64,000 bases of DNA from Lytechinus pictus (taxonomy: Eukaryota). Location: NCBI RefSeq assembly GCF_037042905.1, contig NC_087250.1:13146001-13210000 (forward strand). Reading direction: 5' to 3'. Positions 5,873 to 34,800 of this stretch are shown here, one piece after another. The stretch's first letter is position 1. Every line of letters starts with the position of its first letter. The notes beneath the pieces were generated by a model, which ran no database searches, was not told the DNA's origin, and saw nothing but the letters and a program-made list of their open reading frames with translations. A program made the translations under genes and the position numbers.

Positions 5873-5915
<43 letters not shown>

Positions 5916-7773: not shown

Positions 7774-7804
<31 letters not shown>

Positions 7805-10800
7805 GAAAAAAATGGATGAAGAGAACAATGGTAGGCGTAGCTTAAATCAAGGTTCCCCAGAGCTATCTGCCCTTTATCTGCCCTATATATATATATATAA
7901 TCTTCCTGTTTTGTTTACTCTTTCTTTCTCTCTTTATTTTTAATCTTGAATTGTTTCCCTTAAGTCTCATGGTAGTCGTTTTCCTCGGTTGTTTATTGCA
8001 TACCTCGGTTTACCCCTAAACATGTATTTCGAACGGAGTAACTCTGCATATTCCCTTTTTACAATTTATTTTCAATACCGTATGCTAATGAAGTGAAATA
8101 AGAATACTAGTTGCTTGTGTGTAAAATATGGACTTTTTTATATATTCAAATCAACGTGCGTTTATACGATACCCCTATGATTATGTAGTTCGTGGATCTA
8201 GACGTCCAAGTTAAGCATATAATCTTACTTGTGCATTACATGGACTGTCATAAAAGTATTTTTCGAAATTTAATCACATGATGTCCCACCGAGATTTAAG
8301 TATTACAAAAAAAGAAAGACATTTACATTGTCCGTTGCGTTGATATACAGAGCATTTTTTTTTTAATAAATGCACAGGGGATACATGGACCCGTTCTGTC
8401 ACTTACCTTCTCGTTTCCTTTTTACGTTTTCTTTTCTTTAAAAGCGGCCACCTCTCCTCGGTGGCCGCTAGATGTGTTTCCCTCTGGTGGCATTAATAGA
8501 CAGGTTTTTATATACGGTATGATATCATGATTGAATGCGGTCATTATGATAATGTGAGTAAAATAATAAATACATGTGTATATATATGCAATATTTAGAT
8601 TATTCTACACAGTAAAACACTAAATAAATTTGTCATCCAACATTGTTTTATAATGAACCTTATATTTGTTTGTTAAAAGTTTTAACAAGTGTTTAAAATC
8701 TTAAAACAACAAAAAAAATTTTATAAAATTAGATTCTCAATAAATTGAGAGTGGTTGTTCAAACTGTTAAACAGCTGCAGTAAGGTTCATATACTAAAAC
8801 AGCGAATTTACTGTGTATAGTCTCTGGCTGAACTTCCTTTTGCAGTATATCGACTTCCAGGACTTGTCTTGGATGAACATATGTTCACACTCTCCTATGA
8901 AGAGGAATGTACCCCATTCAGACTCACTTACACGATTCCCCTGTCGCAAGAGGGCGCCCGACAAACCGATGGGACTGATGAGGAGGAAGATGATGCTGAA
9001 AGCGAAAGGGGAGGCGATGGTGAAACTAGGGAGGTGATTACCTACGACGATTTCGGTGCGTTCAGACGGGGGGAGCAATCACTGCCGGAGATGCCATCTC
9101 TGCTCAATGGGAAACAAGGTAATTTAATACAGTTTCGTCTTTATTACTTATAACCCCTCTAGGTTGCCGTCAAATATTCGAATTTGTCTCCATGATCATT
9201 TCGGTTTATTTTTCGATTGGTCTAATGCCAATTCGTCCATTATCCAACTCCTCCACTATCATTTCGTTTACAATCGGTTCGTCCACTCTCCATATGATCT
9301 CACTGCTATTTCGTTCACTCACCCTTTCGTCTAATAACCAGTTTGTCCAATAGCCTTATTAGTCGAAATGGTCATAGACGAACTGGTGATTAGACGAAGT
9401 GATGATTGGACCAAAAGGTGATCGGACCAAATTGTTGTTAGGCGAAATGTTGATGGACGGAATGGCATTAAACTAAATGAAGGTAGACCATGTGATTTGA
9501 TTTTGATTTGATTTGATTTATTTATTTCCGTTTCACAATTGTACATAATATGATAAACATAACATAACAAGGTCGAAAATACTACAAGACAAAATATAAT
9601 ATATATATGATGAGTGGACGATTTCCAATAGACGAATTGGCAATTAACTCTCATTCCTACAGTTTATTAGCCCAGAGATAACAAATATGCTTTACCATTT
9701 TAACCCCTTTATACTAGAATTATACTAAACGAAACCGATCCCAAACCGACCGATGGGAGGCCATAGGAAGAACTTAATAGATTTGTTCGGTTTTCTTGGC
9801 ATATTCTACTTTCATAAAATGCTCTCCTTTTTTTATCAACGTCCACAATGCCCTACTGGAAAGAACACACTGGCCCGTATTCTGAAGTCTGGTTTAACTT
9901 AAACTCAGGTTAAAAGTTGTGGTTTAAGTATGGATAGCCAATTGTTACATAAATCACTAACAGCAGAGATATCATATTTCAGCTCTCTTGCCTCTAAAAT
10001 CATTCATAATTGTCTAGGAAGTATAAATAGATGATTGTCTCTCCATCAATGAATCAGGAAAGAGCACAGTAAATATAAGAAACATACAACTTCATAACAA
10101 AATTTGACACTTTCGGCTTCCCATAATTTTAGCACAAAGTTAACACCATGGTCTAAGTTAAACCTGACTTTAGAATATGGGCCACTGTCTCAAAGGTTGG
10201 GCCACAGTGTGTTCACAATGGCCCATATTCTGAAGTCAGGTTTAACTTAGACCATGGTCTAAGTCTGTGATAAATTATGGAAAGCCAAACATGTCAAAAT
10301 TTTCCTTACATTACATGTTTCTTATGCTTATTGTGCTCTTTCCTAACTCATGAATGGTGAAGAAAGTTATCTTATTTATCTTTCCGAAACAGTTAAGAAT
10401 GATTTCAGCGAAAAATGAGCTGATACATTTATTTTATATTGTTAGAGATTTACTCAACTATTGGCTGTCCATAGTTATACCACGACTTTAAACCAGAGTT
10501 GAAATTAAACCCGACTACAGAATACGGGCCGGTGTATCGACCACAATGTGAGATCCCGTTTAGACTGTTACATTTGACATAGTCACACTGCAGGTGTCCA
10601 CAGAGTGAATATATCTACACACTGTTGTATTTAGGCATTTAAACTGTGATAATAGTTTCATACAGTCAAAGTGACATGACAGAAAATTCTTTATAAGGTT
10701 CCGTGTACACAAGTGTTTAATTTTTTTTTTTAATGAAAATAAATGTATCATTTGCTTTTTTGGGGTTATATTAGACTATCTGGCCCAGATTTCGATGTCA

Positions 10801-13800
10801 GGTTTAACTTAAAGGTATTGTTTAACTTTGTGAGCAGCCGATTAAAAAAATTATCAAACCAAGATGAAACATGTGTACAAGTGCATGTATTAGAACTAAT
10901 AAACCCTGAAAACAACCATTATTGAGAATGAAAAGCTAAAACTACAAGGCAAACCCCGATTTTGTAAATAAGCGTCTTATAGACGCCTAAATAGTACACA
11001 TAAGTGTATGGGATGAAATTAAGATGGTGTTTTCGGTCACTTTATATTTCAATTTTTGAAGCACTAAATAATTATTTTCGAACGCAATTTTTTCTGGGCT
11101 TCATTTTTTGTAACATATCACAGACACAGGTGACAAGTGTGACCTTCTAGCTCAGATTTTTAAAAAGTCAAACCAATGTTAACCAATCACTTTAATAGAC
11201 CATGGTCTTTGTGCTAAAATTATAGAAAGCCAAACATGTCAAAATTGTGTTTACATTGAATGCTTCTAACGTTCATTTTGTTCTTTAATGATTCTTTATT
11301 CTTCCCAGACAGTTTAAGGATGATTTCAGAGACGAATGGGCTGATCCATTCAATTTCTACTGTTATAGATTTATGTATTACAATTGGCTGTCCATAGTTA
11401 AACCACAACTGTAAACCAGAATTTTAAGTTAAACCTGACTTCAGAATACGGGCCGCTGTGTAGTCTGCTGTGCAAACCCTTCACCTATTTACTCAAGTTA
11501 AGGGTCTGATGAATGACATGTGCAGCCTACTCATGCCTTGTGTACTAAAAGCCTCTCTAGTCTTTGCGTGGAAGCACACTAATTGTTGATCAAAGTTCCA
11601 ATCATAGTCTGTGCCTGCAGCCTAGCCACTGTGTCCCATTCAACATGTTCAAGGGTGTATGTAAAAGTGAGTTCTATCCCTTGCTCTTGTTAACAGCCAA
11701 CCTGGCCAAAGGAAGTAGCAATATGATCAGAATCGACAACTCGAATTTTACCACCGACAGACAACTTGTGATTTCTGGGAGATTATGTGGATTGGGATCG
11801 AGGTTGCTGTTGTTGTGCCCAACCATTGATGGTCGCTCCAGAATTCGCACCGATGATGCACCTTCGGGCAAATGCCACAACGTTTCAGTATACGTCGAGG
11901 CTCCCACCATTTCCAGCGCTCGATTGAGCAATGAAGGTAAATTAGTAATTTTTTTTTAAAGTTGTTACTGAAGCTCGATGCTTCCGTAAGCTGTGTCTTA
12001 GTTGGAACAATCATCGCATGTTCAAAAGGTGTTTTCCCCGCTTAAAAAGTTTAAAAAGTTGCAGCAACGATTAAAATAAACCTGTAGTTAACGCATTTTC
12101 CCCCTTTATTGGAGGACTACATATGAATATATATAATTTATCCTCTTTTTTTTTTGCAACAATTACCGCATGTTCCAAAGGTGTCGTCTCCCTTAAAAAA
12201 AACCAAAATAGATAGGTTGCAGTAAGGATTACAGTAAACATTAAACCAGTAGTAATATTAATAGTATAAGTATAATTTCTCATTATTCAATTATGGCACC
12301 ACCACCTCGTACATTCCATATTCATGAAGACATGCACATAACTGTTTCATCGAAATAAATGCAGAACTTGAAAACGTCGTATTTTTTTATTCCTTGTCCG
12401 ACTTGGATGAGTTTTTCAGCGATTCGTTCTTCTGATTCAAAGGGAATGCTCAAATGACATTTAGTTCAACCAGGAGAACCCCTTTAACAATATTACAAGC
12501 TTATACCAAAACCAAAATTAGTATTCCAGCTCTCTATTAAGAAGACAAAATTAGTCGTATCAATATCATTTTTTTGTATAACATCACGAGTCGGTGTCAT
12601 ATATATAATGCCATGAACTGTACGTGGAACTTGAAACAAAAGTTCCGGCAAAGGTTACATGATCCTGTACCTTTCATAAATAATCTTAATCAAATACACA
12701 TTTTTGCTGCAATTCTACAATTGATAAATCAAAGTAAGCTATAGCAAATCGCTCTACATTCCTTATGGTAAGTGGCAGATCACCATTTGATTTGGGGCCC
12801 CCAAATAAAATTTGCAATCAATCAAAAGTTTATACCGACAAGTACAACCCAGTAGACTTAGCTGGACGCTGCTATTTCAAGTTTTGCACGTGGCAATGTG
12901 TTATGATGTGTTTGTGTGTGGATGGATGCGTGTGCGCGCTTGTGTGATTATGTTCTATGTTTTTTTATTTTTGTTAAATATTGAATATTCGGGGTTTTCA
13001 CGCTCAGATTTTGCGTGTGAGGGTTCGCCTATGCATGAGCGTGTGCTTGTGCGTGCCATTATACTGCATTGATTTTGCTATTTCGTCGCTGCCTTTTATA
13101 TATATTTTATTTTGTAATATTTCAGGCGATGGAATCATCATCTTTTTCAATAAGAATGTGGCTATCAAAGATCTTCGGAAGTGTTCGAGTATTTTCGACG
13201 AATCTACCATCAATCAGTTGGGTGAAAACGCTGTGTGCAAATGGAAAGACGGAAAGAACTTGATTGTGGGTCTGGGGTGTGATACGAGCATCACCACAGG
13301 TAAGTAAATAACATCTGCAATATCCTCATGTTTCGCTCCGTCTAATCCCACTTGGTCTATTGTTACTTCGTCAAAAACTACACTGCAAAAACTCCTGTGT
13401 TGATTTAACACCAGCCCGGAATCTATATATATACATGATGATATATGTCCAAACCAGAAAAGTATTGAAACAACACCAGTTTGGAATCGAACCGATGCTG
13501 TTTTAATTCTAATTGGTGTTGTATAAACACCTATCTGGTGTTAGACCGAAACGAAACTGGCGTTTAACACTTCTCTGGTGTGGACATATATAGATTCCGG
13601 ACTGGTGTTAAATCAACACTTCTTCTGGGGCCTGTTGCAGAAAGAGTTGTGTCTAAACGCAAGTCAAAATATCAAGCGCAAGTCCCGAATGCGGGTGCTT
13701 CATAGGCTAAAAATCAAATTGCGCAAGATATTTTGAGTTGCGTTTGATCACAACTCTTCCTGCAACGGGCCCCTGGTAACCAAGTGGTCAAGTTGCCCTT

Positions 13801-16800
13801 AGAGGCATTGTTTAACATTGATTTGACTTTTTAAAAAACATCTGAGCTACGATTGATCCAATCAATCATAACTCTATGGAAATCTTCAGTGTCATAATTT
13901 GTAAATTGTTTTTGTAAACAAAGGCGAACACACCAGATTGTCAAGAAAACGATTAATTTACGAATGTACATCATATCTAGACAATATTTTGAGAAAAATG
14001 TGCATTGTAGGTGTTGACGTTGGCTGTCCATAGTTGCGATTGATCGGATCAATCGTAACTCTTTGTGAGACGGGGCCCTGGCCAATACACTAAACGAGAA
14101 TAAGATGTAGCTATTGTACCAAGGGTACTATAAACATTCGTCTCCAACCCCCTATTTCTTTCTCTCCCATTTCCCTTAGTCTTCTTTTCTCGCCCTCTCT
14201 CTCCTTGTCTCGCTCGATCCCCTTTCTCTCTTTCTTTCCATCTCTGTAGATTATCCCCTTGTTGGTTACTATATGTTTGTTTATATTTCTACAATCGTGA
14301 ATATTGTTTCCCTTTTCTTTAAAAAATACAGTTTCTAGATCCTGCGTGTTACTTGCCTTAATGCTGCTTCCTAAGTTAAATGCCTGCAAAGGAATCACGA
14401 GTTTGATCTGTTTAGATAATGATCTTATGAGTTACCACGTTATTGGAGGAAATTTGTTTGTGGTCACATTACTGTATTTTTTTGCTCTTTGCAGGAAGTA
14501 GCATCACTCTCAGGCCTGATAGGATCAAAGCTGCCAGGAGTACTTTCTCCCATACTGCTTCCGGCACCGTCAATGTGCTGGCTCCGAACGACCCCAAGCC
14601 CCCAATGGCTGTCATAGATGGTAGACCGAAGGTTCCCTCTTGTGGACAGTTCGCCCTCTCCGGTCGAGCGTCGACAGGTGGCCGGTCATGTGGTCTGACG
14701 TACGAGTGGGCACTTGTGAGTCCGACGGAGGATGTCGATTCTAGGCTGACAGATAAGATTCAAGAAGCTAACGGTAATTATCAAAATACACTGGAGAAAC
14801 ACTAAAAAGTGCTACAATGGGAGAGAACTAAACAACACATTTTGTAGTCAATCTTTGGCTGTGTGCTATAAAAAGCTAGTTTTAAAAATACATTTTTCGA
14901 GATATCTATTGATAATACATGGAATTATTACCCAAATGTATTTGAGAAACTAAATGTTTTTGAAAGGATAGCACAACTGTTTTGGTACATGTCAAAGGGA
15001 CTACCGTCTTATGAATGTACTGAGTAGTGAATAAGCATCTTTTCATTAAAATGGGCCTGTATTAGAATACCACCGTGCTCAGAATATTGCATCATGGGTT
15101 GGGAACTGACCAAAATTTGTGCATTTGTGGACTTGAGGTGGCGATTTTAAAGCAGATGCGAACCAATAGCGCCATCTCGAGTCCTCAACTACTCATACCT
15201 GGCCAGTTTCGTGACCCATAAGATTTAGATTTAGATTTAGATTTATTCATTTTCCGTTCACAAAGCACAACAAAATCAAACAATACATAGTCAAATTTGA
15301 AGTACAACATCGGAGTAAGGTATAAACAATGAGAACTAATGCTAACTAAAGTAACTTTGACTATAATGACTATATAAAACAGAACGGAGGGGCTTGCCAA
15401 GAAAAGCAAAGCTTGTATGAGAGGCAAGCCCCCGTAACTTAGTTTCAGTACGTATATTACAAAATTATAATATAAAGGAGAGACGGGAGACAGTTTAAAA
15501 GGAGGGAAAAGGAGGCTATACAAAATATCAAAGGTAACAACGAAAGAGTAACACAAATTAGAATAAGTGATAATAGTAATAATAATAATAAAAAAATAAT
15601 AACAGTATGGTTACAATAATTGTGATAATGAGGGAGGAACTGAGAAGCAAATGTAGGGAGAGAGGGGGGGGTGCAGGTACAATTGGAGGTGCAAAGAGGA
15701 GCATGGCAGGTGCGGGAAAAGGTCGGCAGGCAAGTTGTATCCTGGGAGGTTTAAAAAAAAAAGTTTTTGTTGTGTATAGTTTTGGTTATATGGTAGATTG
15801 ACTTGTTTGTGTAAAGTATTGGCTAATAAGCATCTTTTTAAGGTTATGTTTAAAAACTGTGATGCTTGGGGATTCCTTAAAGGCGTTGGGCAAGGAATTC
15901 CAATATACGGGACCAGAAAAGACAAAATAATTTTTTGCAAGTAAAGTTCGGGTTGGAGGTAGGTGATAGGAGTTTCGTTGTCTTGTAGGATAATCGTGTA
16001 CAGAGGAGTTTTTGCAGAACATAATTGAAAAAATTGCGGGGAGATCATCTTTATTTAGTTTGTACATAAATTGGCCGAGTTGGAACAAATATATATCATT
16101 AACTTTAAGGATTTTATTTTCAAAAAATAATTTATCTGTGTGACATCTGAAATGTGTATGAAATATTATCCTAAGTGCTTTTTTCTGTAACAAAAGTATC
16201 CTTTGTAATTGTGTTTGGATTGCACAACCCCATGCCAAAATACCGTAATTAATGTATGGTAATATTAAGGTGTGATATAGTGTAAGTAGTGTACGAGATG
16301 GAAGAAAAAATTTGAGCTTGTTGATAATTCCAATATTTCTTGAGATTGTTTTGCATATATTGTCGATGTGTGGTTTCCATGATAATTTATTATCAATAAG
16401 TAAACCCAAGAATTTTGTTTCAGAAACATTTTCAAGGACAGTGTTATCAAAAATGAGATTGTCGGGCAAACTATTTATTCTATTACTAAATAGCATGTAA
16501 TTGGTCTTTTGTAAGTTAAGTGAGAGTTTATTTGCCTTGATCCATTCAGTCACATGCATGAGTTCAGAGTTAACAATCCTAATAAGTTGGTTTATGTTAT
16601 CATGAGAAAAGAAAATGTTGGAATCATCAGCAAAGAGTATGAATGAAAGTAAATTTGAAGTTTTGTGGATGTCATTAATGTAAGTGATAAAAAGAAGAGG
16701 GCCGAGTAAGCTACCCTGTGGTACCCCGCATGTAATTGGAAGGTTGGATGAATTGTGATTGTTTATTGATACAAACTGAGTCCTATCTGTAAGGTAGCTC

Positions 16801-19800
16801 TTGAACCACTCCAAGGCCTTCCCCCTAATACCGTAATGAGATAGTTTATACAAAAGAATTTCGTGGTTAATGGTGTCGAAGGCCTTGGAGAAGTCCAGGA
16901 AAATACCGACAGTGTGACAACCTTTGTCAGTGGAAGTAGTGATTTTGTTAATGAAAGATAAAATTGCATGCGAGGTGCTGTGATTTTCGCGAAACCCAAA
17001 TTGAAAGTCCGAAAAGATATTGTAATTTTTAAAGAACGTACTAGTTCGTGTATGGACAAGTTTTTCAAGAATTTTTGATAACGAGGTGAGCAATGATATG
17101 GGACGGTAGTTGGAGACGAGCTGATTATCTCCTTTTTTAAAAAGAGGGACTACTTTTGCGATTTTCATAAGACTGGGTACCCTTCCTGTGTTCAAAGAAA
17201 TATTAAATATATGCACCAAAGGATCGACGATAGCCAAAATAATTTTCTTAAGTAGGAGGTTGGAAATACCGTCAAACCCCGGGCACTTTTTGGACTGCAG
17301 ACTGTTAACAATATTTATGATTTCTCTTGAACTTGTGGGATTAAAAAAAAATGGAGTTTGGGTTTGGGTTGTCGAGAAAATTGTTGTAAGATTTATTCGT
17401 TTGAGGGATTTTGCTTGCTAAATTGTTGCCAACTTGTGAAAAATATGAATTAAACTCTTTTGCTATTATGTTATTGTCATCAGTGATGGTATTGTTTGAT
17501 TTTATTTTTGTTATTGAAGAACTCTTCTTCTTATTGTTTAATGCACCATTGATGATTTTCCATGTGTTCTTCATATCATTTTTGTATAAATCGAGTTGAG
17601 AAGTGTAATATTCTTTTTTCGCAATACGAAGTAAGGATGTAAGAGTGTTTTTATATGAAGTGTACTTGTAGCGAGATGTATCACTTGGTTTAGTTATGTA
17701 TTTATAATATAAGTTGTTCTTGCGGTTGATGGATCTTAAGAGTGATTTAGTAATCCAAGGGTGGATAGGGATCTTTTTATAATTTGATCTTCTGTTGGTT
17801 GTAAGGGGAACATGGGTATCTAGAGAAGAGGTAAGTATGGTAATAAAACAGTTGTATGCGTCGTCAGCGTCCGAGGAGTCATATACAGTAGACCAGTCTG
17901 TTATGTTTAAATTATTAATCAAATTGGTTATGTTGTCGTCAGTTATCTTTCGGAATGTAGGATTAAATGTTTCTTTATTGACACTTTTATTCGTAGATAA
18001 TTTGGCAAAAATTGGAAAGTGATCAGAGATGTCACTAAGAATAATACCAGCTTTATGATTTTGTCGAATTGTATTACTGAAAATGTTGTCTATTATAGTG
18101 GCTGAGTTATTCGTCACTCTTGTCGGCTTCGTAGTAAGGGGCAAAAAAGAATGTGATAGAAACATTTCAAGAAACTCTTGCGAGGTGCTATTAGAGTTGC
18201 AATTTACTAAGTTAATATTGAAGTCACCCATAAAAAAACAATCTTTATTTTTCAAAAGAGGATTTAGTAAAATTTCATTCAGGGTTTCTAAAAAAGCATT
18301 GGCATTTGAATGTGGAGGTCTATAAAATACACCTAGCATAAAGTTTTTACCTCTTGGATTTCTGATTTCAACAAAAAGTGTTTCTAAAACATCGTTAGAT
18401 ATGGTCATGTTAGCTATAAGAGTATAGTCGTATTGTTGCGGTATGTAAAGTGCGACACCACCCCCTGGTCTTTTTGTTCTATTATTAACAATCAAATTAA
18501 AATTAGGGAGTGAGAAGAGGGAACATGGGTTGTCCGAGAACCACGTTTCAGTTAAACCAATGAATGACGATTGCGGAAACTGGTTATTATCTAGAAATAA
18601 CTTAAGTTTATCAAAATTTTTGCTTGCACTGCGAATGTTTATATGGAGAAGAAAGGGGTTTTCCTCGGCTTTGTCTGACGTAACGAATGATCTAAAATGT
18701 TGTTCTGTGAAATATTGTGACGTAACGAGCTGCCCGCATTGATCATTGGAATCGAAATTGTAATTAAGATCAGCGGTATTGTTATTCATAAAATTTCGTA
18801 TGTGTGTATCGTAATTGGAATTTTCATGATTATCTAATGTTTGAGTAGTGCCACGTTGCGCCGAGAGAGACAACAAGTCATCATTATTCAAGAAGCTAAA
18901 TGGAAACTTAGTTAAGTCGGTCATTAAAAAAGGGGAGGAATTAAACAATAGTACCTAACGAATAGAATACACTATGCCATATACTTAACTACCTTTAAAT
19001 AATTTACAGAAAAAACAAACAAAATAATGCTAGTGTAGTCTCGTCATGTAGACCCAATTTAATGGTAACATGATGATTAACTGCTCAGTACATTTAAACC
19101 GCAATAATTATGTTACCAAGTAGCAAACCAATTATTTTCCTCTCAAAACATTTTAGTTTCCCTATTCAAATACAATTGTAGATCAATTTGTTCTCTGTAG
19201 TGCTAGCGGATATGTGAAAACGTATATTTTAAGACTATGTATTTAAAAAACACAGTCAATGAGAGACTACACACAGTTCACCCCTCCCCTACTGTTTCGT
19301 ATGAGCTTTAAATCTTGAACTATGGTGTGTGTTTTATTTAAAGGACAAGTCCACCCCAACCAAAAGTGGATTTGAATAAAAAGAGAAAAATCCAACAAAC
19401 ATAACACTGAAAATTTCATTGAAATCGGATGGAAAATAAGAAAGTTATGACAATTTTAAGTTTCGCTTAATTTCACAAAATAGTTATATTCACATCCTGG
19501 TCGGTATGCAAATGAGGGAACTGATGACATCACAGACTCACCATTTCTTTTGTATTTTCTTATATGAAATATGAATTATTCTAATTTTCTCCTCATTGTC
19601 CTGAGAAACAAATTTATTTCGCCCTGAACATGTGGAATTACCATTGTTTAACATTTTATGTTTCAGTCAAGTTGGTCTTTATTGTCAAATTTGTAAAAAT
19701 TGAAATATTGTATGAATCAGACAAAAGAAATAGTGAGTGAGGGACATCATCGCTCTCTCATTTGCATGTGACTAAATTGTGCATATAACTATTTATTGAA

Positions 19801-22800
19801 AAATAAGCAAAACTTTCAAATGTCATAACTTTCTTATTTTACATCCGATTTTGATGAAATTTTCAGCATTATGCATGTCTGATTTTTCTCTATTGATTCA
19901 AATCAACATTTTTCTGAGGTGGACTTTACCTTTAATATCTATGTGCATAAAATCTACCCAGGAAAGAAATAAACTAGTTAGCCAAAGACGTGAAGATACT
20001 TTGGAGATGTCTGACACTCACGGGCAGAAATCCTAGGGGGACAGGGGGTCGCGTCCCCCCTACCAAAAATAATAGGAGGGACATAATATCAAATGCCCCC
20101 CTACTATTTTTGGTCTTTTTTGTTGGAGCAAAATACATCACTTCACAATTGAAAATCGAAATAATACATGTATTTTTGGGCTTAATGACCTTACATTTGG
20201 GGTGATAACCCTTTTTTTTGCTTTTCATTTTTTTTTGTATTAAAACATTTTGGGTGATAACCTTTTTTTTTTTTTTTTAATTGGGGACAGATTTCCGCCC
20301 ATGCTGACACTGTAAAATCCCAATTTCTATTTGATTACATTCTATGTTTTCACTTTTGTCATTTCCAAACAGATGCTAATAATGACCGGATGGTCTCCAC
20401 CACCGAGGCCTTGCCCGAGGTTACCCCCTACACATTCAGATTGACCGTGACTAATAAGCTCGGGCTGTCTAACTCTACTGAGTTCACCATGCGCAAGAGC
20501 AATGTCCGGGAGCCGTGGTTAGAAATTCAAAAGAGTGGCAACATAAAGGGCACCAAAGTTTCGGCGAATAAGAAGTAAGTATTCCCATGCCAATGCAAAA
20601 TTCGAAATTCAAAAGAGTGGCAACATAAAGGGCACCAAAGTTTCGGCGAATAAGAAGTAAGTATTCCCATGCCAATGCAAAATTCGAAATTCAAAAGAGT
20701 GGCAACATAAAGGGCACCAAAGTTTCGGCGAATAAGAAGTAAGTATTCCCATGCCAATGCAAAATTCGAAATTCAAAAGAGTGGCAACATAAAGGGCACC
20801 AAAGTTTCGGCGAATAAGAAGTAAGTATTCCCATGCCAATGCAAAATTCGAAATTCAAAAGAGTGGCAACATAAAGGGCACCAAAGTTTCGGCGAATAAG
20901 AAGTGAGTATTCCCATGCCAATGCAAAATTCGAAATTCAAAAGAGTGGCAACATAAAGGGCACCAAAGTTTCGGCGAATAAGAAGTAAGTATTCCCATGC
21001 CAATGCAAAATTCGAAATTCAAAAGAGTGGCAACATTAAGGGCACCAAAGTTTCGGCGAATAAGAAGTAAGTATTCCCATGCCAATGCAAAATTCGAAAT
21101 TCAAAAGAGTGGCAACATAAAGGGCACCAAAGTTTCGGCGAATAAGAAGTAAGTATTCCCATGCCAATGCAAAATTCGAAATTCAAAAGAGTGGCAACAT
21201 AAAGGGCACCAAAGTTTCGGCGAATAAGAAGTAAGTATTCCCATGCCAATGCAAAATTCTAAATTCAAAAGAGTGGCAACATTAAGGGCACCAAAGTTTC
21301 GGCGAATAAAAAGTAAGTATTCCCAAAAATAAATTGGCGTGTTTGAAGACATTGTCGGGGGGAGCAGATTCATCACCTCAAACAGCAAAATAGCCCTAAT
21401 CCTTCCGCCAGTCAAAATATAGTCCAAAATTGGTGATACTTCTTCCCAATTTGGGAAAGGGAAGTTCAGTAATTACCAAAAATAGAATCAGTGTTAGATG
21501 GACAATCATATGCATATACTTTGTCAATCAGCCATATCAAAATTCAAAATTCGAAATTCAAAAGAGTGGCAACATAAAGGGCACCAAAGTTTCGGCGAAT
21601 AAGAAGTAAGTATTCCCATGCCAATGCAAGGATCTCTGGACCAAGGACGAGATTTTTGGGAAGCACCATACTTTTCTAAAGGGCATATTTATCTATGAAT
21701 ATGGATACTTTAGTGTCATGCCTATTACCAGATGTATCTGATTATTATAGCTATCATTATACGTAGTTTGCCAAAAAATAAAGAACATTTGTAAAAATTC
21801 TCTTATGCAGATCTTGTTTAATTTATGAACACTTTGAAACCTTATTAATAACTTTGGGTGACGCAACAGAGATGGACCGTTATGAAAATCGTGGCCCAAA
21901 AGACATGATTGAATTGCATGTGCGAATGTTGATGTTCACATTATTTATGTCATAGAAATATTAAAGAGTTATGAATCCGTAGATATTAAAATAAGAGCAT
22001 AAGCACGTTCGTTGTTACACCTCAACAAAGTGAGGTGTTGATGGTATTATCAATCCTACCAGCTATCAAATTTTGGCTGTTTGTTCAAGACCTTAACAGA
22101 TTTTGGTGTTATTACAAGACATGTGGTTGCTTTTTATTTTTCTCTGCTTGGTGTTATGCTCAATCCTGGGGTACTACTTTAACACATCAGGGTATGATTC
22201 TCTCGGGACGCAAACGTGTGTAAGTTTGAACACCCACGCTGTTACAGTCTATAATTCTCCTCATCATAGGTTTGGCATTATTGCCCAATTCACCTTTGAA
22301 CAAGCAACCGGATGTGAAAAGCTTGCCGCCTCACGTGCTGAATACCAGTGGTCCGTTGAAGGGGTTGAGTTCGATGAGGATGCCCTCCGTAAGAGAGGAC
22401 TTCGCTTCCTACCAAGCAATCTAGGTTAGTTTTGAAATGGAAATTTATTTTAACGGGCAAATTCATGTTGTGGTAATTGGTAAAACAGCTCGTGTGAACT
22501 ACTTAGGAACACTAATCTTACAAGCCGATGCCCCAATGAATCTGCTGCTTTACAAAATATTCTCGAATTCACGATATTATCAATAGCCGCTGAAATGTGT
22601 TCCGATATGTGCAGTTGTGTGTACAGCGACTTGCAAAAAGTCTAGTAATTTCCCGTCACCTTTCGTAATTTTATTTCTTTTCTTTTCAACAAACTTAATA
22701 CAATGCAACCTCAAGCATTTATCGCACAGATCAAATGCAATTTCAAATCATACCAAACTCTTGCTAGGAAATCTTTCCATTTAAACGCAAGTTTTTTTTC

Positions 22801-25800
22801 CCTCACTCCACATATTAATGTTAATTCATGGTAAGCATGATCACGCACTTTATTGTTTTATCATGACGTTTATTCTTATAATATACACATGGCGATTCAC
22901 TATCAACTTTTGCAGGTGGTGCGTCGGAAATCGCTGCAACTGTAACGGTGACCTACGGGAGTCCAACAGACCAGAATACGAAGTCCGCTTCAGTGACGCT
23001 GACTGTCGTAAAGGCGCCGCTCAGAGCACGTATCAAGGGCGGCGGTCGTATCACCATTGGGACGGCTTCGGACTCAGTCGATCTAGATTGTTCATATTCA
23101 GAAGACCCAAGCTACCAAGGGGATGAGCCCGATCCCGGCCTTGAGTTCCGGTGGGAATGTTGGGATGTAAGTTTGCCTATTCATGATATTATCAATAAAA
23201 AAAAAAAAAACAATAATAATAGCAACAATAATAACAATGATAACTATATAACAATCATTATCATAATAACAACAATAATACCAATAACAGTGAAGATGAC
23301 AACGAGTGTAATCGTAATGGACATTTGTATAGAGCAATCTATCTACCAATGAAATATTCAGAGGCACACTGTCAATGTTACCTTTGCTTTAGCACGAGCT
23401 GCATTCCAGGGCTTAATGCATTAAATGAATTTACCATGTTAGGCATCCAGTCCTGGGTTGAGTGCAGCCTAATGCTGTTGAATATATTGCTGAAGAAAAC
23501 ACGCAATGGTTTGGATTCGAACTGATGCCCTTTGATTGAAAGTCGAAAGCCTTAGGCTTGTGACGAGCCACCACAAACAAAGTCGCCAGGGAAAGATCTC
23601 TATAAATATATTTTTAAAGAGATAGTAATATGGTCTTTTAAAGGGGGGAAATGGTAGGGGGTAAGCTCATCTGAAAACATGATTATTTTTCTTCATTCTG
23701 TCAACATTTGAATTTGTAGAGTTGAATAAAAGACAAGATGCGCAGCTTTCTTTTACTCGATTTGACCTTCTTGGAAGTTTTGTCAAGATTGCGCAAGTAG
23801 CACATTTCATTTTCGAGTGAACTCGGAACTTAAAATTGTGTTTTTCCCTAATTTATGAACTTCTCTCTGAATTCCTTTTGTATTGCCCTTCTTGTATGGG
23901 TTATTGTAAATCAATTGCGACGAATTAAAGATGTGCTATTTCTAGCAATGGAAATCTAAATACTAATTTTGTGTAAGTGCAAGGAAATGTAATTTCTTTT
24001 CTTATCAGTTATACTTCGTGAAATACTCCCTAACCCCCCCCCCCTCCCCTTTGTTGTCCCAACTGCTTTTGTGCCAAAACATTCCTCGTTTAACATTTGT
24101 ATGATAACGCTGTATAATCCATTTTTTTTTCTTTTTCAGGAGACCTCAAAAAACACATGTGATCTACCCAGTTCCCAGGAGGATGCAGACGTAGCCATAT
24201 TGACCATTGAACCTTCATTACTATCGGTAGATAAGACATATTCCATCTCTTGTTACGTCAACAAGGCTGGGTTTGACGAGGTACACGACAGTGTGAAGGT
24301 TTCCGTCACAGAAGGAAGTCCTCCAAGGGTAAATTGTCAGATTCATTCCGCTATAGACATTATACTTATGCCTTTAATTAATTTAATAGCGCCCTCCCAG
24401 TACCTCAGAGGCTGTAGGAATACGGGTAAACGGACCTGATCCACGGAGGATTATCTATTTTTACTGGGGGTGTTGTGACAATGCTCAGCCCCCCCCCCCC
24501 CCCCCCCCAGTAACAATAAAATAATCCTCCGTGGATAGGTCCATGGGACGCGCTGCAGATCTTTAACGCATTCAAGGCAATGGTTTTAGCCACTAAGTTG
24601 GCAACGGGATGACGGCAATGTATAAGGTCTATTGGGCTGTGAGTCCAGATGTGTAGTTGACGTGTGTGTCCATATGCGTTCGTGTGACGTGATTGCAGTC
24701 TCGCAGTGTGTTTTCGGCGTGGAACACAACGCGAAATCATCTTCACTTGTTATGCTCAGCGTAAACTACTTTTCTTCACAAAATCCTCCCTTTGATCGCT
24801 AACATTGCGCATGCATCGAGAGTACGGAATCTCCGCACCGTTTGTCAACATTTAGCATCTTAAAAGTGTAAACACTCTCATCACCTAGCGTGCTGAGAAC
24901 ACTTCGTGAACACATAGCGTTAACACAAATAAATTGAAATGAAAATCAATGATAATAATAGTAATCCCTACTCAACATATATGTCTCATTCCTCGATGTT
25001 GGTTGCAGGTTTCGCTGGCACTCCTTGGATCAAAGGAAGGCTCTTACAAGCCCGGGCAAGACGTAGAAATTAGGGTCATGTTCAGCGGCATGTACAACGA
25101 AACGGTGCTGGAGGACCTGCGGGGTGGTCTCGATGGAATTGGTGATCTGCAGTACACTAATATTATAGATAAGACAAGGGAAGACCAAGAGACAGCAGAA
25201 TCCAGTTCTCAAGACAGTTCTTCAGACAAGCCTTACCAACTGACAGTCTCCAAGAAGATGACACGATACACCGTGTTGGTGAAGATTGACAAATGTGCGT
25301 TTATTTTCTATAATTATATAATATTGGTAGGTTATTTATTATGTGGGTGGGCTGCCTTTTTAAATATGAAGTGAATTCAATCATATGAGGTGGGTACCAC
25401 GGCAACCGAGGTGTGTTTTTTCGCATGGAGTTAGAGCGCATCAATAAAAAGTTTACACTTTGAAAACATCTTCCTAATCGAATAAAATACCACATATGAT
25501 TTTTTTCATATTCTCATGTTTGGGCTTATCTCCCAGATGACAGTAGGCCTATAAATTTCGACAGAATGTTACGCTTGATTGAGCACAATCCATTTTTGTA
25601 AAGCTCACATAAATTTGCGTAGAAATGATTATTGTTCACGCTGTGTCGAAGGGAAAAGACGAAAAGTGTTTCTATTTTTGTTTAGATCTGTTCAAGGGGA
25701 TTTGGGGTCAATGGAATGGAATATTTACATTGCAACTTTTTATAATAACCTTTCGACGCAAATTGACATTATGGACATTATAAACCTAGGTAAACATAAT

Positions 25801-28800
25801 GTTTAGGTTGTTTGTGCCAGCTGGATCTGGGGACATAAAAATAAAATCACATTTCAGCATTTATTGTTGTTAAGTTATGTTGGGGTTCATACTTCATGCC
25901 ATACATTCCTCCAGTCATAACAAGGCATAACAATAGAACATAATTCGCGCTCACATCATTTGATTGGTGAAATATGTATGGTCTTAGTGAATTCCTACAA
26001 ACTAGCCTTAGAATGCCCCTCTTCAGGTCTGAATTTTAAAAATTTTCAGCTCGCGCTTCGCGCTCGCATCGTTTGGTTGGTGAAATACGTATGGTCTTAG
26101 TGAATTCCTACAAACAAGCTTTAGAATGCCCCTCTTCAGGTCTGAATTTCCTAAATTTTCAGCTCGCACTTCGCGCTCGCAATATTTGATTAGTGAGATG
26201 CGTATGATAATCATAATTACAATGACTGCAAAAAGTGCTTCATGTGTTTAGATGTAATTCTAACAAAATCAGCAAGCGCTTATTGGCACTCGCATTAGAT
26301 GACTATGGTGAAATATGTGTACTCTTAATGGATTCCTAAAAAATATAGTCCTTAAAATCTTTCTGTTTGGGGTCAATGTCCCTTTTTAGGTCCAGAGTAT
26401 CATTACTTTTGATTCAATCATCTGGTTTAATAATGCAAAACAGAGAGATAAAATAAAGCTTAGAAGACTTGTTAAGCAAGCCAGCAAAATAATGAATAAC
26501 ACTGTTGACTTAGATGAAATCTGTAAAGAAAGAGTACTTTCGAAAGCTCTCTCCATTATGTCTGATCAAACCCACCCCCTGAATAGCCAGTATATTCAAT
26601 TAAGAAGCGGACGAAGACTGAAATCTGTAAAAGCAAGAACCAGTCGCCGCATTAATTCGTTCGTCCCTTTCTCCATAAGAGTTGTCAATGAAATAAGGTA
26701 GAATAAGGAGTGTGGTTTATCTGTAGAAACAAAGAGAAAATGTAGCAGACAACTCTGCAACTTACACGTAAGTAGTAATTGTAGAGTTTTAATTAACAAA
26801 TAAATGAATGAATAAATAACTGAATAAATAAATAAATGCTCAATAACTATGCCAGCAAAGTCATCGATTTTAATTAATATATACATTACATGTACTTTGT
26901 GTACAATCATGATGATTACGTTCATGTTCATGTTTAATATGTTACCGGTATGTTCATTGTTGTTATGTTATTCTGTGAATAATATTTTTGTTGCAAGAAT
27001 TGTCAAGTTATACAATTGTCCGTTTTAACGGACAAATAAATGAAATGAAATGAAATGAAATGAATATAAAAAATTTAAAGCTCGCGCTTCGCGCTCGCAT
27101 TATTTGATCAGTGAAATACATATCCGTTTAATGGCACTGTTCTTAAAATGTCTCTATTATAGGTCAATATACTTGGCAACTGAGCGCGCTTCGCGCACTC
27201 ACTAAGTGACTCAATTTTTTTGCTGGTGCCCCCCCCCCCAATGCCGTGACCCACGGTACGCCACAGGGTCTAATTGTGTGTGTGGGGGGGGGGACAGTAA
27301 CGCTCAATTGAATGTTTTGACCAAGGTAACAAGTTAAAAAAAAAACAGAAAATATCTTCAAATCAATTAACTTAGCAACGCCCATACACTATTCATGATT
27401 AAGGTCTACTCTTAATCACATAACTATTTTGAAGTTGCGCGCAAATCATTTTTCTCGAACTTTTAAGTAGGTGGTGCTCACTCAAGGGGAAAGATTTCTC
27501 GAGAATCATATCGTCATTACTCTTTAGGTTAAATAAGCCAATATATAAATGTATAAAACGCTTTAGGATATAGCAAATTTATAGGAATAATTCAAAGTGT
27601 AAACTTTGTTGATATACACTGTAAAATGAGTCCATGAGCTCTGCACTCAGTAAATCAATTAGATCGAAGACGGATCTCACAACTTTTCACACGATTAATA
27701 TCATTAAAAATAAAAATATTTTTTTAATGGTAGATTTGGGAATAAAAAGCAGATGGTTACAAGCCATACGTTTTCGCAAAGTGTTAATACAGAGTCTGGA
27801 GTAGCGAGACTCTGCTCACCAAAGTACTATAGCTGCTTCTACACACAGAGAATCTAGGCATGGTTTGGTGTCTAAAAAACAAACTATTTTGAGGCTGTAT
27901 TTTCAGCTAGGGTGTAGAACAATCTGCATTTCACTTTGCAATTATGGACTTTCTGCAACTAATACACAGACGCTTTCTGGAACGTAGGGAATCTATTTTC
28001 CATGGCCCTTCATGACACAAAGTAATCTTTGTCGAAAATTGGTAAATCAATCAAGCAGTGTTGTCCGTGACTCTGGACTAAGGAAATATTTGCAATTTTT
28101 CGTCATCTCCGAATCTTACAACGACCACTTGTCTCGGTTCACTAATTTTCAACAAAGCCCTCTCAGCTGTTCCTTGTGATTATCAATAGATTTACTATGT
28201 TGTAGAATCCACCCCCGTTGAAATTATAAAAAAAAAATCGATATTATGTTTCTTCTGCAGCCATCCTTACCCCCGGAAGTCAATACAGCCTCGGGGTCAA
28301 GGTCGTCAGTGAATCGAGTGAAGGGTTAGCGGAGATTGATTTCAACGTCTACGACAGGGTCACCGGCTGCACATTTGAATTTGGAGTAAATGGAGATTAT
28401 GAAGATACTGCCTCTGACGTAAGTTCTTTTCGTCACACATTGCAAAAAAAAAACACGGTGGGTGTTTCATAAAGCTGTTCGTAAGATAAGAACGACTGAT
28501 GGTTTAGCGTGTAAAAAAAAGGATCACCTGTCGTTCTTAAAGTCGCTCTTAACTTACGAACAGCTTTATGAAACGACCCCCGGGGTCTGAATACCGCCCA
28601 TGTCCGGGTTAGGATTTATCTGTCCACTCCTACAAGTTGGTTTCTTATTAAGATAAAGATGATGATACTGATAATGATGATCATCGTTACTAAAACAATG
28701 TTTATACTGATACATGATAGTTTCATTATTATATAATATTAGGCTATTTTGAGTTGATTTATTGTCACTATTAGCATTTTTTATCGCGAGATTTTTTTAA

Positions 28801-31800
28801 AATTATTATCATTAACATTTTAGAGTTATTTTCACCCGAATGTCCTCTCAAATGGCGAGGTCGAACATTCTTATTTAAATCGACAGAAGAGCACTAAGCT
28901 GTTCGAAAGCTTTCGGCAAATAATTTTGGCTGCCGCTTGGAGTAGCATTTTTTTAATTTTAACTTCTCCCAAACGAAAAGCGACTCGAGGAACCATTGGC
29001 GAAGCTTTCAAACACTTTTTTTGTCACGTATGATACGAATGTTTGAATATGTCATTTTTTTTTGTATTCGAGTCATTGCAAAAGCTTAGCAAAACGTCAG
29101 CGAGCCCCTGCCGTGACAACGGCGCTTTACCGATGAGGTCTTGGTAATGGAAAGTTTTCGCATTTACTATGGGGCTGCGCTCTTTGAAAATGCAAGTCAA
29201 ACCACAATGCAGAGCCGAGAGACTGTTGTCAAAAATTAGTGGACGGAACAGCAGCGTCGTTTCGTGGCTCTGGACAGCGACCTTTTTTGCAATTGTTCGT
29301 CCGGTGCAAATTTTCAGGGCCCCGTCTACGGAGGATTATTCTATTGTTACTGGGGGTGCTGAGCATTGTCACAACACCCCCAGTAACAATAAGATAATCC
29401 TCCGTGGCCAGGTCCATGCAAATTTTTGGATGATCTGCTGTCCCGGTCTACCAACTTTGTTTTTACCTGAATTTTCAAAAGAAATTGGTACGTTTTAAAG
29501 AGCGACCCCGTAGTAAATGCCAAAAACTCTATATTAACATTATTACCATAAGTATCATTATTAAGCATTATCTTCATCATTATTATAACCACCTTTGTAA
29601 GTGTCTTTCAAATCTCTTCAAATGCAGGTGACGTATGAAGTATCCGGGTGCTCTGTTGAGTCTCTCGAGGGTCTCACCTACCGGGCGTTCGCCCAATTCA
29701 GATCTAAGAAACGCCTCTTAGGGGAAACTTCTCAGGACAGCACGTTCACGGTAGATCACGAAGTTCTCGATATTGTCAAGAAAAGTATCGAGGCCGGCGA
29801 TGCTGTAGACTTCAAGGTCGGCGTTAAGGTAACAACAGTTATTGTTTACTATAGCCCCTCCTCTTGTTTTTTTTTTTTTTCATTTTAAATTCAATCATTT
29901 TTTAAAGTTTATTTCGATAGATTTGGCTCCGAAAATAAATGTAATAGAAATAAGCTACATGTTTATTGTTGGAGGGGCAATTGATTGACATCGTGCGTAC
30001 CAGTCAATGACCGTCCGCAAATCAACAATACGTACGCGCCGTAATGTACATCCTTGGTATATTTCGATGTGCGCAGATTTTACTGCCCCCCCCCCCCCCG
30101 CTAGTTACATGACATCGTCGCTACTAGTCATTTTTAACACTCATTTCATGCTCATAATAAGCCATTGCTCATCAAACCTTTCAGGGTTGACATTCGCCAT
30201 GACATCTGACTTTCGACAGATGTCATGGTTACGTTATACGTTAATGTTATTTGTTTTTCTTTCCACTGATGGATCACTTTCTTCTCAATATTTTTCCCCA
30301 TAATGGAACCTCAATAGGAATAAGCTATAGCCCGAAGTAAAATTCATAATGAAATGACATAAATATTATAGTTAATGATCAGTTTCATTACCATCGAAAT
30401 ATATGTTTTTGTCATTATTTTTATTACTATCTTTGGTAGGTATGTAATACTACCAGTGGCGTTTGTTCCGAATTCCTAAAGAATGCAACTTACGCGATGG
30501 GCACACTCAGTGACGAGGAGCTCGATGAAGAGAAGCAAGAAATCCAGGATTTGAAGTTAGAAGGTATTTTATTATTTTTTATGGTCTTTATTATTATTAT
30601 AATTATAATCATTATCATCTTCTTCTTCTTCATCATTAGTATCATATTTGTTTTTAATATTATTGATATCATTATTCATTATTTCGGCAACGAAAAGTAT
30701 ATCAAATTGGTACATGTAATGCAACACATAATAAACTACTCGCATTTGCCTTGCTCTCACCTAATATGGTTGGATGAAGGGATAAGGGGGTAGGGGGACA
30801 GACCTCATATCTGCACCTGTTTAAATGATGACAATAGAAAAGTGTTTAAAATTAGTTTTGTTCTTGTGTAGAGGTTTTGGCAGGGGTGGTTGAGGTTCGA
30901 ATGATGCTCCTCTCACCACATACCTGTTGGGAAAATCCTCTCTATAGCTGGTTGGTGTTTTATAAAGCTGTTCGTCAATTAAGAGCAACTTTAAGAACGA
31001 ATGGTCATCCCTTGTTATACGCGCTAAATCATCGTCACTGAACATTTGGTGCATACGATTTACCGCAAGATGGGATCACAAGTCGTTCTTAACTTACGAA
31101 AAAGCTTTATGACTTACCCACCTGGGACCCGTTGCATAAGACTTTTGCCATAAATAACTCTGACAAACAAAATTATGCCATTGAAAATTACACAATAAAA
31201 ACATCTGGCAAAAAATTTGCCTGAGTTTTTTTATGGCAACAACTTTATGCAACGGGTCCCTGGTTAGGTAGTACGAAGTATACCTGCGTGCGGAATATGA
31301 TATTTAAATCATGAAGCATTAAAGGAGAAATATATTGATTATGAATATGGCCTTATTATATATCAGTGGAGAGGTAATGATGTGAGGATTACCATTAGGT
31401 CATTCAAAAATAACGAAAATAATACATAAGGTGGAAATCGCGAATTAAAAAGCGCTAAAATGCCTCTCCGAAATATGCCTCGCATCGGTCTCTGAATTGA
31501 CTCGAATTTGATGACGTCACTGTCTGTACGAGAGGCGTGATTGGCTCTCCCACGTCAAGCTCCACTTGCATGCAAAACCTGTTGCGAGGGTACGTTTTCT
31601 CCACACTGACACTGAATACTTCGATCATGAAATGAAAGAAAACCCAGAAGTTTATCTAGATTTTGGATTTTCAAATTGATGATTATGCAGATGAAGAGAA
31701 TGATGATAAAGTTTCTAACTCTAGAAAAACAAAGTGGCGTGGATGGTGGTAAATTAAGGGAATTACGCTGGTGATGATGAGTAGGACAATTCAACTTGCA

Positions 31801-34800
31801 AGCCGATTCGCTACCAACGCATGCAGCTGCTAGCTGCACCGCGGGTCAAATCCATGAAAATGAATTCCATGCAGCATGACCACATCCAGACAGAGTCTCT
31901 TTCCTCTATCAACAACATAATGAGAAGGAAAATAATAAGATAACTGTACTTACAAATAAGTGAATATATCCGAACCTAGGCTGAAGGTAAATCAACTCAA
32001 GGAATAGCAGCAGACGATATGCACCGACGATGAATTTCACGTGGCTGAATAGATTGTCACTCGTTCTGTTAGATAAAATGTATATCTCATTATTTTGACT
32101 AAATTACGAAACTCGGAGAATTAGTATTCTACATAAAAATTAAGTAACACCTGGTACTATTTTTTGAATTACGATAAAATATTTTTGAAGCAAAGAAATT
32201 GAGGTAAATTAAAATAAGATATAAAGGATCATCCACTTAGCCGCATGCGATTGTAAACAAACAATCAAAAGCACATGGCCAGCTTGCTCCACTGAACTGA
32301 AAATACGTATTTTCAGTTCAGTGGCTTGCTCGCCCGTAGAGTTGGATAAAGCGTAGCTTTATCCAACTCTATGTGCTCGCCTTGCTGATTGTTTACAATC
32401 GAATGCGAGCTAGGCGGATGATCTTTTATATCTAATTTTAATTCACCTCATTTTCTTTGCTTCAAAAAGGTTTTATCGTAATTCAAAAATTATAGTACCA
32501 GGTGTTACTTAATTTTTATGTAGAATACTAATTCTCCGAGTTTCGTAATTTAGTCAAAATAATGAGATAGAAATTTTATCTAACAGAACGAGTGACAATC
32601 TCCCAGCCACGTGAAATTCATCGTCGGTGCATATCGTCTGCTTTTATTCCTTGAGTTGATTTACCTTCAGCCTAGGTTCGGATATATTCACTTGTTTGTA
32701 AGTACAGTTATATCATTATTGTCATTCTCATTATGTTGTTGATAGAAGAAAGAGACTCTGTCTGGATGTGGTCGTGATGGAATTCATTTTCATGGATTTG
32801 ACCCACGGTGCAGCTATCAGCTGCATGTGTTGGTAGCGAATCGGCATGCAAGTTGAATTGTCCGACTCATAATCACCGGCGTAATCCCCCTAATGTATAC
32901 CTCTATCCACGTCACTTTGTTTTTCTAGAGCTAGAAACTTCATCATCATTCTCTTCATCTTCATAATCATCAATTTGAAAATCCAAATCTAGATAAAATT
33001 CTGGGTTTTCTTTCATTTCGGGATCGAAGTATTCAGTGACAATGTAAAGAAAACGTACCCTCGCAACAGGTTTTGCATGCAAGTGGAGCTTCACGTTGGA
33101 GAGCCAATCACGCCTCTCGTACAGAAAGTGACGTCATAAAAAAATCCCAAATTTCGCGGACGTAATTCTGCGTGTTTGAAGCATTCAGAGAGAGAACTTT
33201 AAACTATCAATTAACTGAGTTCCATCGGTCTCCATGATAAATGATTTACACCATCGTGTTCTCCTTATTTTCTCCTTTAATTTGATATATGATTCTCCAT
33301 TTTTACTATTTTCAATATAGTTCTAATTTAATATCAAAGTTTTCATACAGGTATATTGCTAAATGCCTAATGCGTTTTTTTTTTTAATATAGGAAGATCA
33401 GTTGAAGGACTCAAAAAAGCGAACCGCGCGCAGAAGGCAAAGGCCTCCCAGACGACTGGCGTCGACAGAAAGAAACGCGCAGCCCCTGTAAGTACTGAAT
33501 TGATCGATTTCTTAAAAAAATAAATGCCAGTTGTGTTAGTGATTTCAAAATGACTCCGTACAGAATCCAATCAACGGGCCATGACCGTATGTACAAATTA
33601 AAAGGAACATATGTGTCAGATGATTGTGGTGGAATATGTGCTATGAATGATATTGCCTTTTTATGCCGGGGGCTCTCTACCGGGTTGTCGCTTCTTTTTT
33701 CCTAATACTACTACTAATAATAACAGAAATAACAATAATGATAATAGTAATACTACTTATACTACAAATAATAATATTAACACTATCCCACATGTACCTT
33801 GTTGGTTTTCTTCAGCATTATCGTTTCCCAGCTTAGATTTCATGGTTTCACTTTTTGGTTCAGGTATGGTAACTGCACCGGAACTAGATCTGCGATGACA
33901 ACTAAATCTTGGTTTACAGACTTTCTAATTAAGTCAGTATTTACTGCAGCTGTTTTCATTGATGATAATCATGTTTTTAATAATAACAATAATCATGATA
34001 AGGTATGATTGCATTTAAAAGCAGAATTATTGGTTTGCGAATGAATTATAGGCCAGTTCCTAATGTGGGTATCGTTTTTTATGCACCTCTGATCAAATAA
34101 AATTAATTATATAAATTTGAAGGATTTCAAGAAGATGCAGATCGGCTGTGAACAGGTGCCAGCCGAGCACATGATTTAGATTTAAACCTAGCGGATTTGA
34201 GTTTTAATCTAATAATTCAAATATATAATGTATTGCGATTTGTAAACTATTCTTTTGGATTTAAAAATGATATCTAATGTTCGGCTGACCACCATTTGCA
34301 ACAGATCTGGTGAATGTTTCATAAGCTGTTCGTAAAGTTACGCACGACTTTACGCACGACTGGAACACGTTCTTAGGTCATCAAGCAATTACATAGTGAT
34401 ATATCACATAGCACAAGAGAGGATCACCAGTCGTGCGTAAAGTCATTCGTATCTTACAAACATCCACCTGGGCTCCGTAACACAAAGATGGGCCATCAAT
34501 CGCTAAATGAACTGACCAATCAATATCAATGTTACAAGCGCATTAGGTTAAAAATACTGACCTGGGACCAATCAGTGCGGTTCTTTCCTTTTTGCAATTC
34601 ACCGCATACCCTTGTGTTACGGAGCCCTGGATACATTTAAGATCCTTGAAAGTTAGATTGTATTGATCGTTTGTTGATTTTCCCCACACTCTAGGATTGC
34701 GATCAAGTATTACTTGACTTGCAATACGAGCTGCTAATGGAAGCTACCAGTGATGAGGCTAATTACAACTACAATCCCGGGGATGTCCTGGGCATGTTGC

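Follow-up and report, generated by a model that had tools for sequence, protein, structure and literature searches.

A mirage-type minisatellite of exon–intron boundary copies in a REJ-domain gene of the sea urchin Lytechinus pictus

The host gene and its surroundings

The stretch of Lytechinus pictus DNA analyzed here, 64,000 nt long and referred to below as the window, contains the gene LOC129262926, in which the boundary between exon 6 and intron 6 is repeated in a minisatellite (Table 1). Exon 8 is 100% identical to the L. pictus protein LOC129262926, and the same protein cluster includes the L. variegatus orthologue. The exon phases are consistent from exon 2 to exon 20, exon 1 being the exception. 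The REJ domain is recognized above the Pfam cut-off (1.6e-10), the GPS motif, located in another exon, falls just below it (5.9e-4), and the transmembrane segment was judged from a hydrophobic C-terminal run, not from a prediction tool. With a REJ domain and a GPS motif preceding the hydrophobic C-terminal run, the gene belongs to the REJ/PKD1 family, which in the sea urchin comprises SpREJ1-10 according to the available text of Gunaratne et al. 2007 (PMC1934368). In domain content it resembles SpREJ1, 8, and 9 as described there, with a REJ domain, a GPS motif, and one transmembrane segment. No lectin or PLAT match was found in the nine exons scanned.

The RefSeq L. pictus model and the model of the L. 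variegatus orthologue both splice exon 6 to exon 7 at the first of the repeated donors, donor 1, as found by tblastn. The exon number 6, given in an earlier note made from the sequence of this DNA, agrees with the RefSeq model, the repeat unit beginning 53 nt before the donor of that exon. The gene was also compared with public sequencing runs, of which 22 are listed, all as contigs and none recorded as RNA; 20 of the 22 contain part of the stretch. Four of them were compared over positions 21300-23180, which cover the insert described below, copy 11, and exons 7-8 and lie outside the tandem array. Runs X1, X2, and X5 come from one organism, while X7 is a DNA run of a second, related species. 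Contig depth is not equal to copy number, and contigs drop rare forms.

Table 1. Features of the locus, in window positions
Feature	Position	Strand	Remarks
Host gene LOC129262926 (L. pictus)	2835..40559	+	20 coding exons, REJ domain, GPS motif, one predicted transmembrane segment
Exon 6, 202 nt	20373..20574	+	phase 2 end at donor 1; the L. variegatus model has the same junction
Duplicated segment, 77 nt	20522..20598	+	last 53 nt of exon 6 and first 24 nt of the original intron; from the length of the copy 11 match
Tandem array, 9.8 x 82 nt	20522..21325	+	variants at 20905 (copy 5), 21037 (copy 7), 21260, 21283, 21310 (copy 10)
In-frame TAA	20576..20578	+	reached by any transcript passing donor 1
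Junction filler AATTC, 5 nt	20599..20603	+	before copies 2-11; sequence read directly
Interruption, 227 nt	21326..21552	.	part of a highly abundant interspersed repeat (other copies match over ~21325-21549), plus filler; replaces the tail of copy 10
Candidate poison cassette, 194 nt	21412..21605	+	CAG acceptor in the repeat fragment and donor 11; inferred
Copy 11, 77 nt	21553..21629	+	no differences; continues into original intron 6; a run X1 contig covers 21600-22299
Exon 7	22270..22424	+	acceptor partner of donor 1; joint 21605->22270 in runs X1, X2, X5

The sequence at the beginning of exon 1 (2835-4990) resembles a signal peptide, but its frame runs into a stop at 4653-4655. Exon 1 is joined to exon 2 in another frame, and the RefSeq model, which lacks a signal peptide, has its start further downstream; an assembly error, a null allele, or an unrecognized splice are the options for this frame break. 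A contig of run X2 terminates exactly at the start of exon 2 (8846), and tblastn finds no match in the window for the N-terminal 1653 aa of the L. variegatus model. It is likely that the gene has alternative first exons with very different N-termini. Exon 1 also contains a T/G/D/Q-rich tract encoded by a degenerate 12-nt repeat of ~91 copies (3168-4266).

Mobile elements are present elsewhere in the window. Intron 5 holds a near-complete LINE on the minus strand (15221-18954), the endonuclease and reverse transcriptase of which are split over two overlapping frames near 17341-17417 and which carries a hexamer tail at 15221-15245. In a second long LINE (51069-57337, minus strand), one frame of 942 aa has a weak PHD match, another resembles an endonuclease, and a third, of 920 aa, encodes a reverse transcriptase. 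A palindromic MITE-like element of ~600 nt occurs twice, at 888-1475 and 19338-19935, the two copies being 82% alike, and a long inverted-repeat element was seen by eye in the intron after exon 13 (31260-33300).

Anatomy of the array and of its interruption

Tandem Repeats Finder describes the array with a period of 82, 9.8 copies, and 99% matches. A script locates 11 copies of the donor, at 20575+82n (n = 0-9) and at 21606, the last one 293 nt beyond donor 10. The layout is one of ten head-to-tail copies followed by a 227-nt insert and an eleventh copy, the tenth copy being incomplete, as it ends 66 nt into the unit and insert DNA takes over. The 11-copy minisatellite at 20522..21629 of the earlier note is thus correct in copy number and location, but only ten copies stand in tandem, with 227 nt of unrelated DNA ahead of copy 11. 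When the window is shuffled ten times, the longest exact repeat measures 15-18 nt; since no shuffle has one longer than 18 nt, the array is not a product of chance.

In the 82-nt unit, 53 nt come from the exon and 24 nt from the original intron, and the remaining 5 nt are the filler AATTC. This division is provided by copy 11, which matches the unit for exactly 77 nt with no differences and then continues into the unique original intron 6. The unit had been described as 53 nt of exon 6 plus 29 nt of intron 6; the exon part stands, but only 24 of the 29 intron letters match the intron start kept behind copy 11, the last five being filler. The filler equals letters 3-7 of the start of the unit. 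The same eight letters stand before copy 11 and before copies 2-10, suggesting a single junction type common to all.

Copies 1-4, 6, 8, and 9 are identical to each other, and there are five substitutions across the 11 copies. Copies 5 and 7 have one change each, that of copy 5 lying in the donor (GTGAGT), and copy 10 has three, of which one is located just upstream of the donor and another is common to copies 7 and 10. Copy 10, which adjoins the insert, is the most altered (3/65 vs 2/815 letters, Fisher p=0.003 in a post-hoc test). The scarcity of substitutions and the single-copy depth of the unit in the related species (run X7, see below) agree with the earlier suggestion of a recent expansion.

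The insert derives from a dispersed high-copy element: the summed contig depth over the fragment is 448-1197 in X1, X2, and X5 and 237,400-294,903 in X7, in the latter thousands-fold above the single-copy flanks (33-61). In X1, X2, and X5 the element extends upstream of 21325. Behind 21543, the same-species contigs have an A-run (X1 n=4, X2 n=4, X5 n=3) and not a repeated filler heptamer. The letters behind the A-run agree at 0.59-0.63 within runs yet are alike across runs, which fits either a 3' tail or an internal A-run. In four X7 contigs, the match to the window extends as far as 21549. The contigs nearest to the fragment differ from it by 2/134 and 4/158 letters, so its capture appears to be recent. 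No second copy of the element was found in the 64,000-nt window, the fragment has no Rfam match and no long open frame, and exact-pattern scans for it gave nothing in metagenome contigs, viral contigs, and prokaryote genomes, collections that hold little animal DNA. The insert does not have a complete target copy on each side, as the left copy lacks its last 11 nt and is separated from copy 1 by eight others.

An alternative that has been considered is that the filler heptamer corresponds to the tail repeat of a LINE or SINE and the array to an amplified target duplication. It is weakened by the A-run behind 21543 and is kept as a rival.

Donor sites, reading frame, and splicing

The GT dinucleotide is kept in all 11 copies; as the earlier note had described for the recurring AA/GTAAGT motif, the donor reads GTAAGT in ten copies and GTGAGT in one, copy 5. 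Ten of the 11 donors equal donor 1 in matching the consensus at 7/9 letters, a score similar to that of most donors of the gene, which range from 5 to 9/9. A transcript that passes donor 1 meets AAG TAA at once, exactly as had been noted, and any downstream donor therefore entails a premature stop. The statement that only the first donor is productive is true, according to the frame computation, for plain donor switching, and its scope is that case. Donors 2-10 lie 78 to 734 nt beyond the stop, many junctions follow, and in every downstream-donor isoform computed from the sequence the stop precedes later junctions.

By the usual rule, nonsense-mediated decay (NMD) acts on a premature stop located more than 50-55 nt upstream of a junction. 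Because the stop lies at least 78 nt upstream of a junction for every downstream donor, such transcripts are NMD candidates. Exon 6 extended to donor 2 would measure 284 nt, which is within the range of exon lengths of the gene (95-286). The secreted truncated ectodomain that had been proposed as a product is doubtful, because its transcript would be a candidate for NMD and because exon 1, in this assembly, has a stop in the frame of its signal peptide.

Concealment of the donors by RNA structure is ruled out, as the region folds worse than shuffles (z=+1.34). An in-frame 39-nt cassette starting from an AG within the unit was likewise rejected, the pyrimidine fraction (0.35-0.41) being below that of all 18 real acceptors of the gene. 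For the acceptor at 21412, inside the repeat fragment, the fraction is 0.71, compared to 0.59-0.94 for the 18 real acceptors. Judged from these letters, the acceptor at 21412 and donor 11 may form a 194-nt poison exon, which would shift the frame and bring stops. This cassette was not seen among the contig matches listed from the four runs over 21300-23180.

Runs X1, X2, and X5 show GT..AG joints at 21605->22270 and 22422->22914, and hence contain spliced sequence. Upstream of the first joint, the spliced contigs of X2 and X5 match for 53 nt exactly. With a downstream donor, ~60 or more nucleotides would match, because the filler also precedes copy 11. In X2, the 1168 letters upstream of exon 7 in the contig correspond to exons 2-6 with donor 1. 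Donor 1 is accordingly the one used in both informative runs (2/2), on alleles other than that of the window. These runs differ from the window at four exon positions, one in exon 7 and three in exon 8, so they may lack the array; their zero cover over intron 6 has no bearing on its presence. No longer form of exon 6 was found among the contig matches listed in X1, X2, and X5.

Run X1 is closer to the window, with no differences in the four listed gene pieces (700, 153, 412, and 254 nt), and has ~7x the single-copy depth, in terms of contig depth, on the intron part of the unit. Together, these observations hint that X1 carries the array. Its junction contig extends only 28 nt into the unit, which is too short to tell the donor, and its word share of 0.76 cannot test the array, since array-specific words make up 9% of the query and pre-array words 82%. 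In X7, the depth of 44.4 over the unit, vs 33-61 over the nearby exon 7 and intron, is a rough measure that fits one copy. The conservation looked for in alternative splicing coupled to NMD is thus not seen, at this rough single-copy depth in one related-species DNA run. It is probable that, on the array allele as well, exon 6 is defined to the first donor, and any leak to donors 2-11 would carry the stop and be degraded.

Related systems and proposed origin

Arrays of this kind are known from amphioxus, where 'mirage' minisatellites have been described in Adh3, the globins BflGb6 and BflGb9, PGBD5, and troponin C in the available text of Ebner et al. 2010 (PMC3087553). They are tandem copies of an intron–exon boundary, variable in length, that leave splicing undisturbed, as stated in the accessible parts of PMC3087553 and PMC3902484. 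The L. pictus locus is a mirage in the structural sense: its unit spans an exon–intron boundary of its own gene, and the copies keep the splice signal. The array likewise lies in the adjoining intron, its unit size is within the reported 10-160 bp, the copy at the edge is the most diverged, and splicing is normal as far as seen. It differs in its echinoderm host, in the near-perfect identity among units, and in that an interspersed-repeat fragment splits the array, unlike the mirages as described in the portions of PMC3087553 and PMC3902484 available. A narrow search of an incomplete literature collection found no echinoderm report of minisatellites at exon–intron boundaries.

The second relative is the 37-bp VNTR in intron 7 of human F7, in which five to nine identical donors stand in a row (Borensztajn et al. 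2006, PMC1557585, as far as its text is available). In both systems the first unit lies across the exon–intron boundary and is followed by several identical donors, and the most upstream donor is used; for L. pictus this is read from the X2 and X5 contigs, which perhaps represent array-free alleles. The unit is 82 bp here and 37 bp in F7, every downstream donor here meets a stop at once whereas two of the F7 pseudo-sites are in frame, and F7 was examined by mutation whereas the L. pictus locus is known from sequence. According to the same partial source, all F7 donors are functional and only the most upstream one is used. The natural test of how the spliceosome chooses among identical donors, which the earlier note had seen in the locus, has therefore already been run there, on 50 constructs (PMC1557585, in the part available). 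The locus belongs to the kind of array already known from amphioxus and human F7 and is most likely neutral, and the captured repeat fragment is the sole feature that sets it apart.

The reading we favor, and consider probable, is that the array is a young, neutral mirage minisatellite that arose by duplication across the donor, expanded, and was later patched with a repeat fragment, splicing taking place at donor 1. In the initial step, a 77-nt stretch across the donor of exon 6 would have been duplicated head-to-tail, with a 5-nt filler copied from its own start, by error-prone end joining or slipped synthesis. With the donor inside the duplicated stretch, exon 6 is kept whole by the first copy, and the others fall within the intron. 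The unit would then have expanded by slippage or unequal exchange, presumably in several rounds, as suggested by the variant common to copies 7 and 10. Later, the tail of copy 10 may have been broken and patched with ~220 nt of the abundant repeat, which displaced copy 11; microhomology at the joints of the patch amounts to 1 nt at its left and ~5-6 nt at its right. Error-prone end joining is described in the available text of a review (PMC7407515) as leaving filler that repeats the flanking letters and short ectopic pieces. The short tandem duplication, the flank-templated filler, and the ectopic piece joined by microhomology resemble SD-MMEJ / polymerase theta scars and the patch-mediated duplications of rice, as the same source presents them. 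Unlike such scars, the later expansion needs a second process, and the likeness is drawn from the junction letters alone. Since four X7 contigs match to 21549, the filler may alternatively derive from the element, and the order of the steps may differ.

We assign a minor probability to a different order of events. Here the insertion came first: the truncated end of a mobile element made a long, 77-nt target duplication, and successive template switches from target to element and back left extra copies with the filler of the element, the result again being neutral for splicing. The fragment has copies on either side of it; it is truncated on the left, with loose ends at 21325 in X1, X2, and X5, and ends near the A-run, behind which (from 21543) the contigs agree only weakly with each other. 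The filler-like letters are native to the four X7 contigs, and the fragment, judged from its distance to the nearest contigs, is as young as the array. However, the letters behind the A-run are alike across four runs, so that the element may extend further and the piece may be internal to it, and the fragment offers neither a long open frame nor an Rfam match; the variant found in just copies 7 and 10 points to later turnover and not to one event. Rather unlikely, in our estimate, is the related proposal that repeat capture and splice-junction duplication were one break-repair or insertion event at an exon edge, the array keeping its scar and the 194-nt poison exon being a by-product. A true array copy is found at 1 of the 38 junctions of the gene, six others having matches of 16-26 nt, which is the chance level; as 6.8% of random 77-nt segments span a junction in this gene, one affected junction proves no bias toward exon edges.

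The earlier note had proposed a copy-number rheostat, in which donors 2-11, or the cassette at 21412-21605, take a real share of splicing and NMD follows in proportion to copy number. Ten of the 11 donors match the consensus as well as donor 1, the exon to donor 2 has a length within the range of this gene, all products carry the stop, and NMD would hide them from ordinary RNA. Nevertheless, the two informative contigs use donor 1 only. The extra depth on the intron part of the unit in X1, ~16.5 above 2.8, is on a rough count not larger than the ~25 expected from nine unspliced copies, and mature RNA longer by 82n is thus not needed to account for it. The F7 pseudo-sites are functional yet unused (PMC1557585), amphioxus mirages leave splicing undisturbed (PMC3087553, PMC3902484), in each case as far as the sources are available, and X7 gives no sign of conservation. 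The proposal is not supported by these observations, and we consider it very improbable. Least probable of all is an artefact of assembly, that is, an inflated copy number or an array absent from the animal. The units are near-identical, and reading frames are broken elsewhere in this assembly, in exon 1 and in the intron 5 LINE, but three copies have distinct variants, and a contig of X1 joins copy 11 to the intron with no differences over 700 nt. The ~7x depth in X1 also speaks against an artefact, as a hint only, since X1 may be related to the source of the assembly.

The array alone matters little, because the splicing question was answered on F7 (PMC1557585, in its available part). If leak to the downstream donors did scale with copy number, the locus would be one of the rare instances in which a minisatellite tunes a gene by way of NMD. 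If instead the single-event reading were true, it would provide a mechanism for the mirages of both urchin and amphioxus, which is said to be missing in the literature, the available text of PMC3087553 calling their origin unclear. The value of the locus is that of a very young, clean specimen with readable junctions, and an allele series at such loci could place the steps in order.
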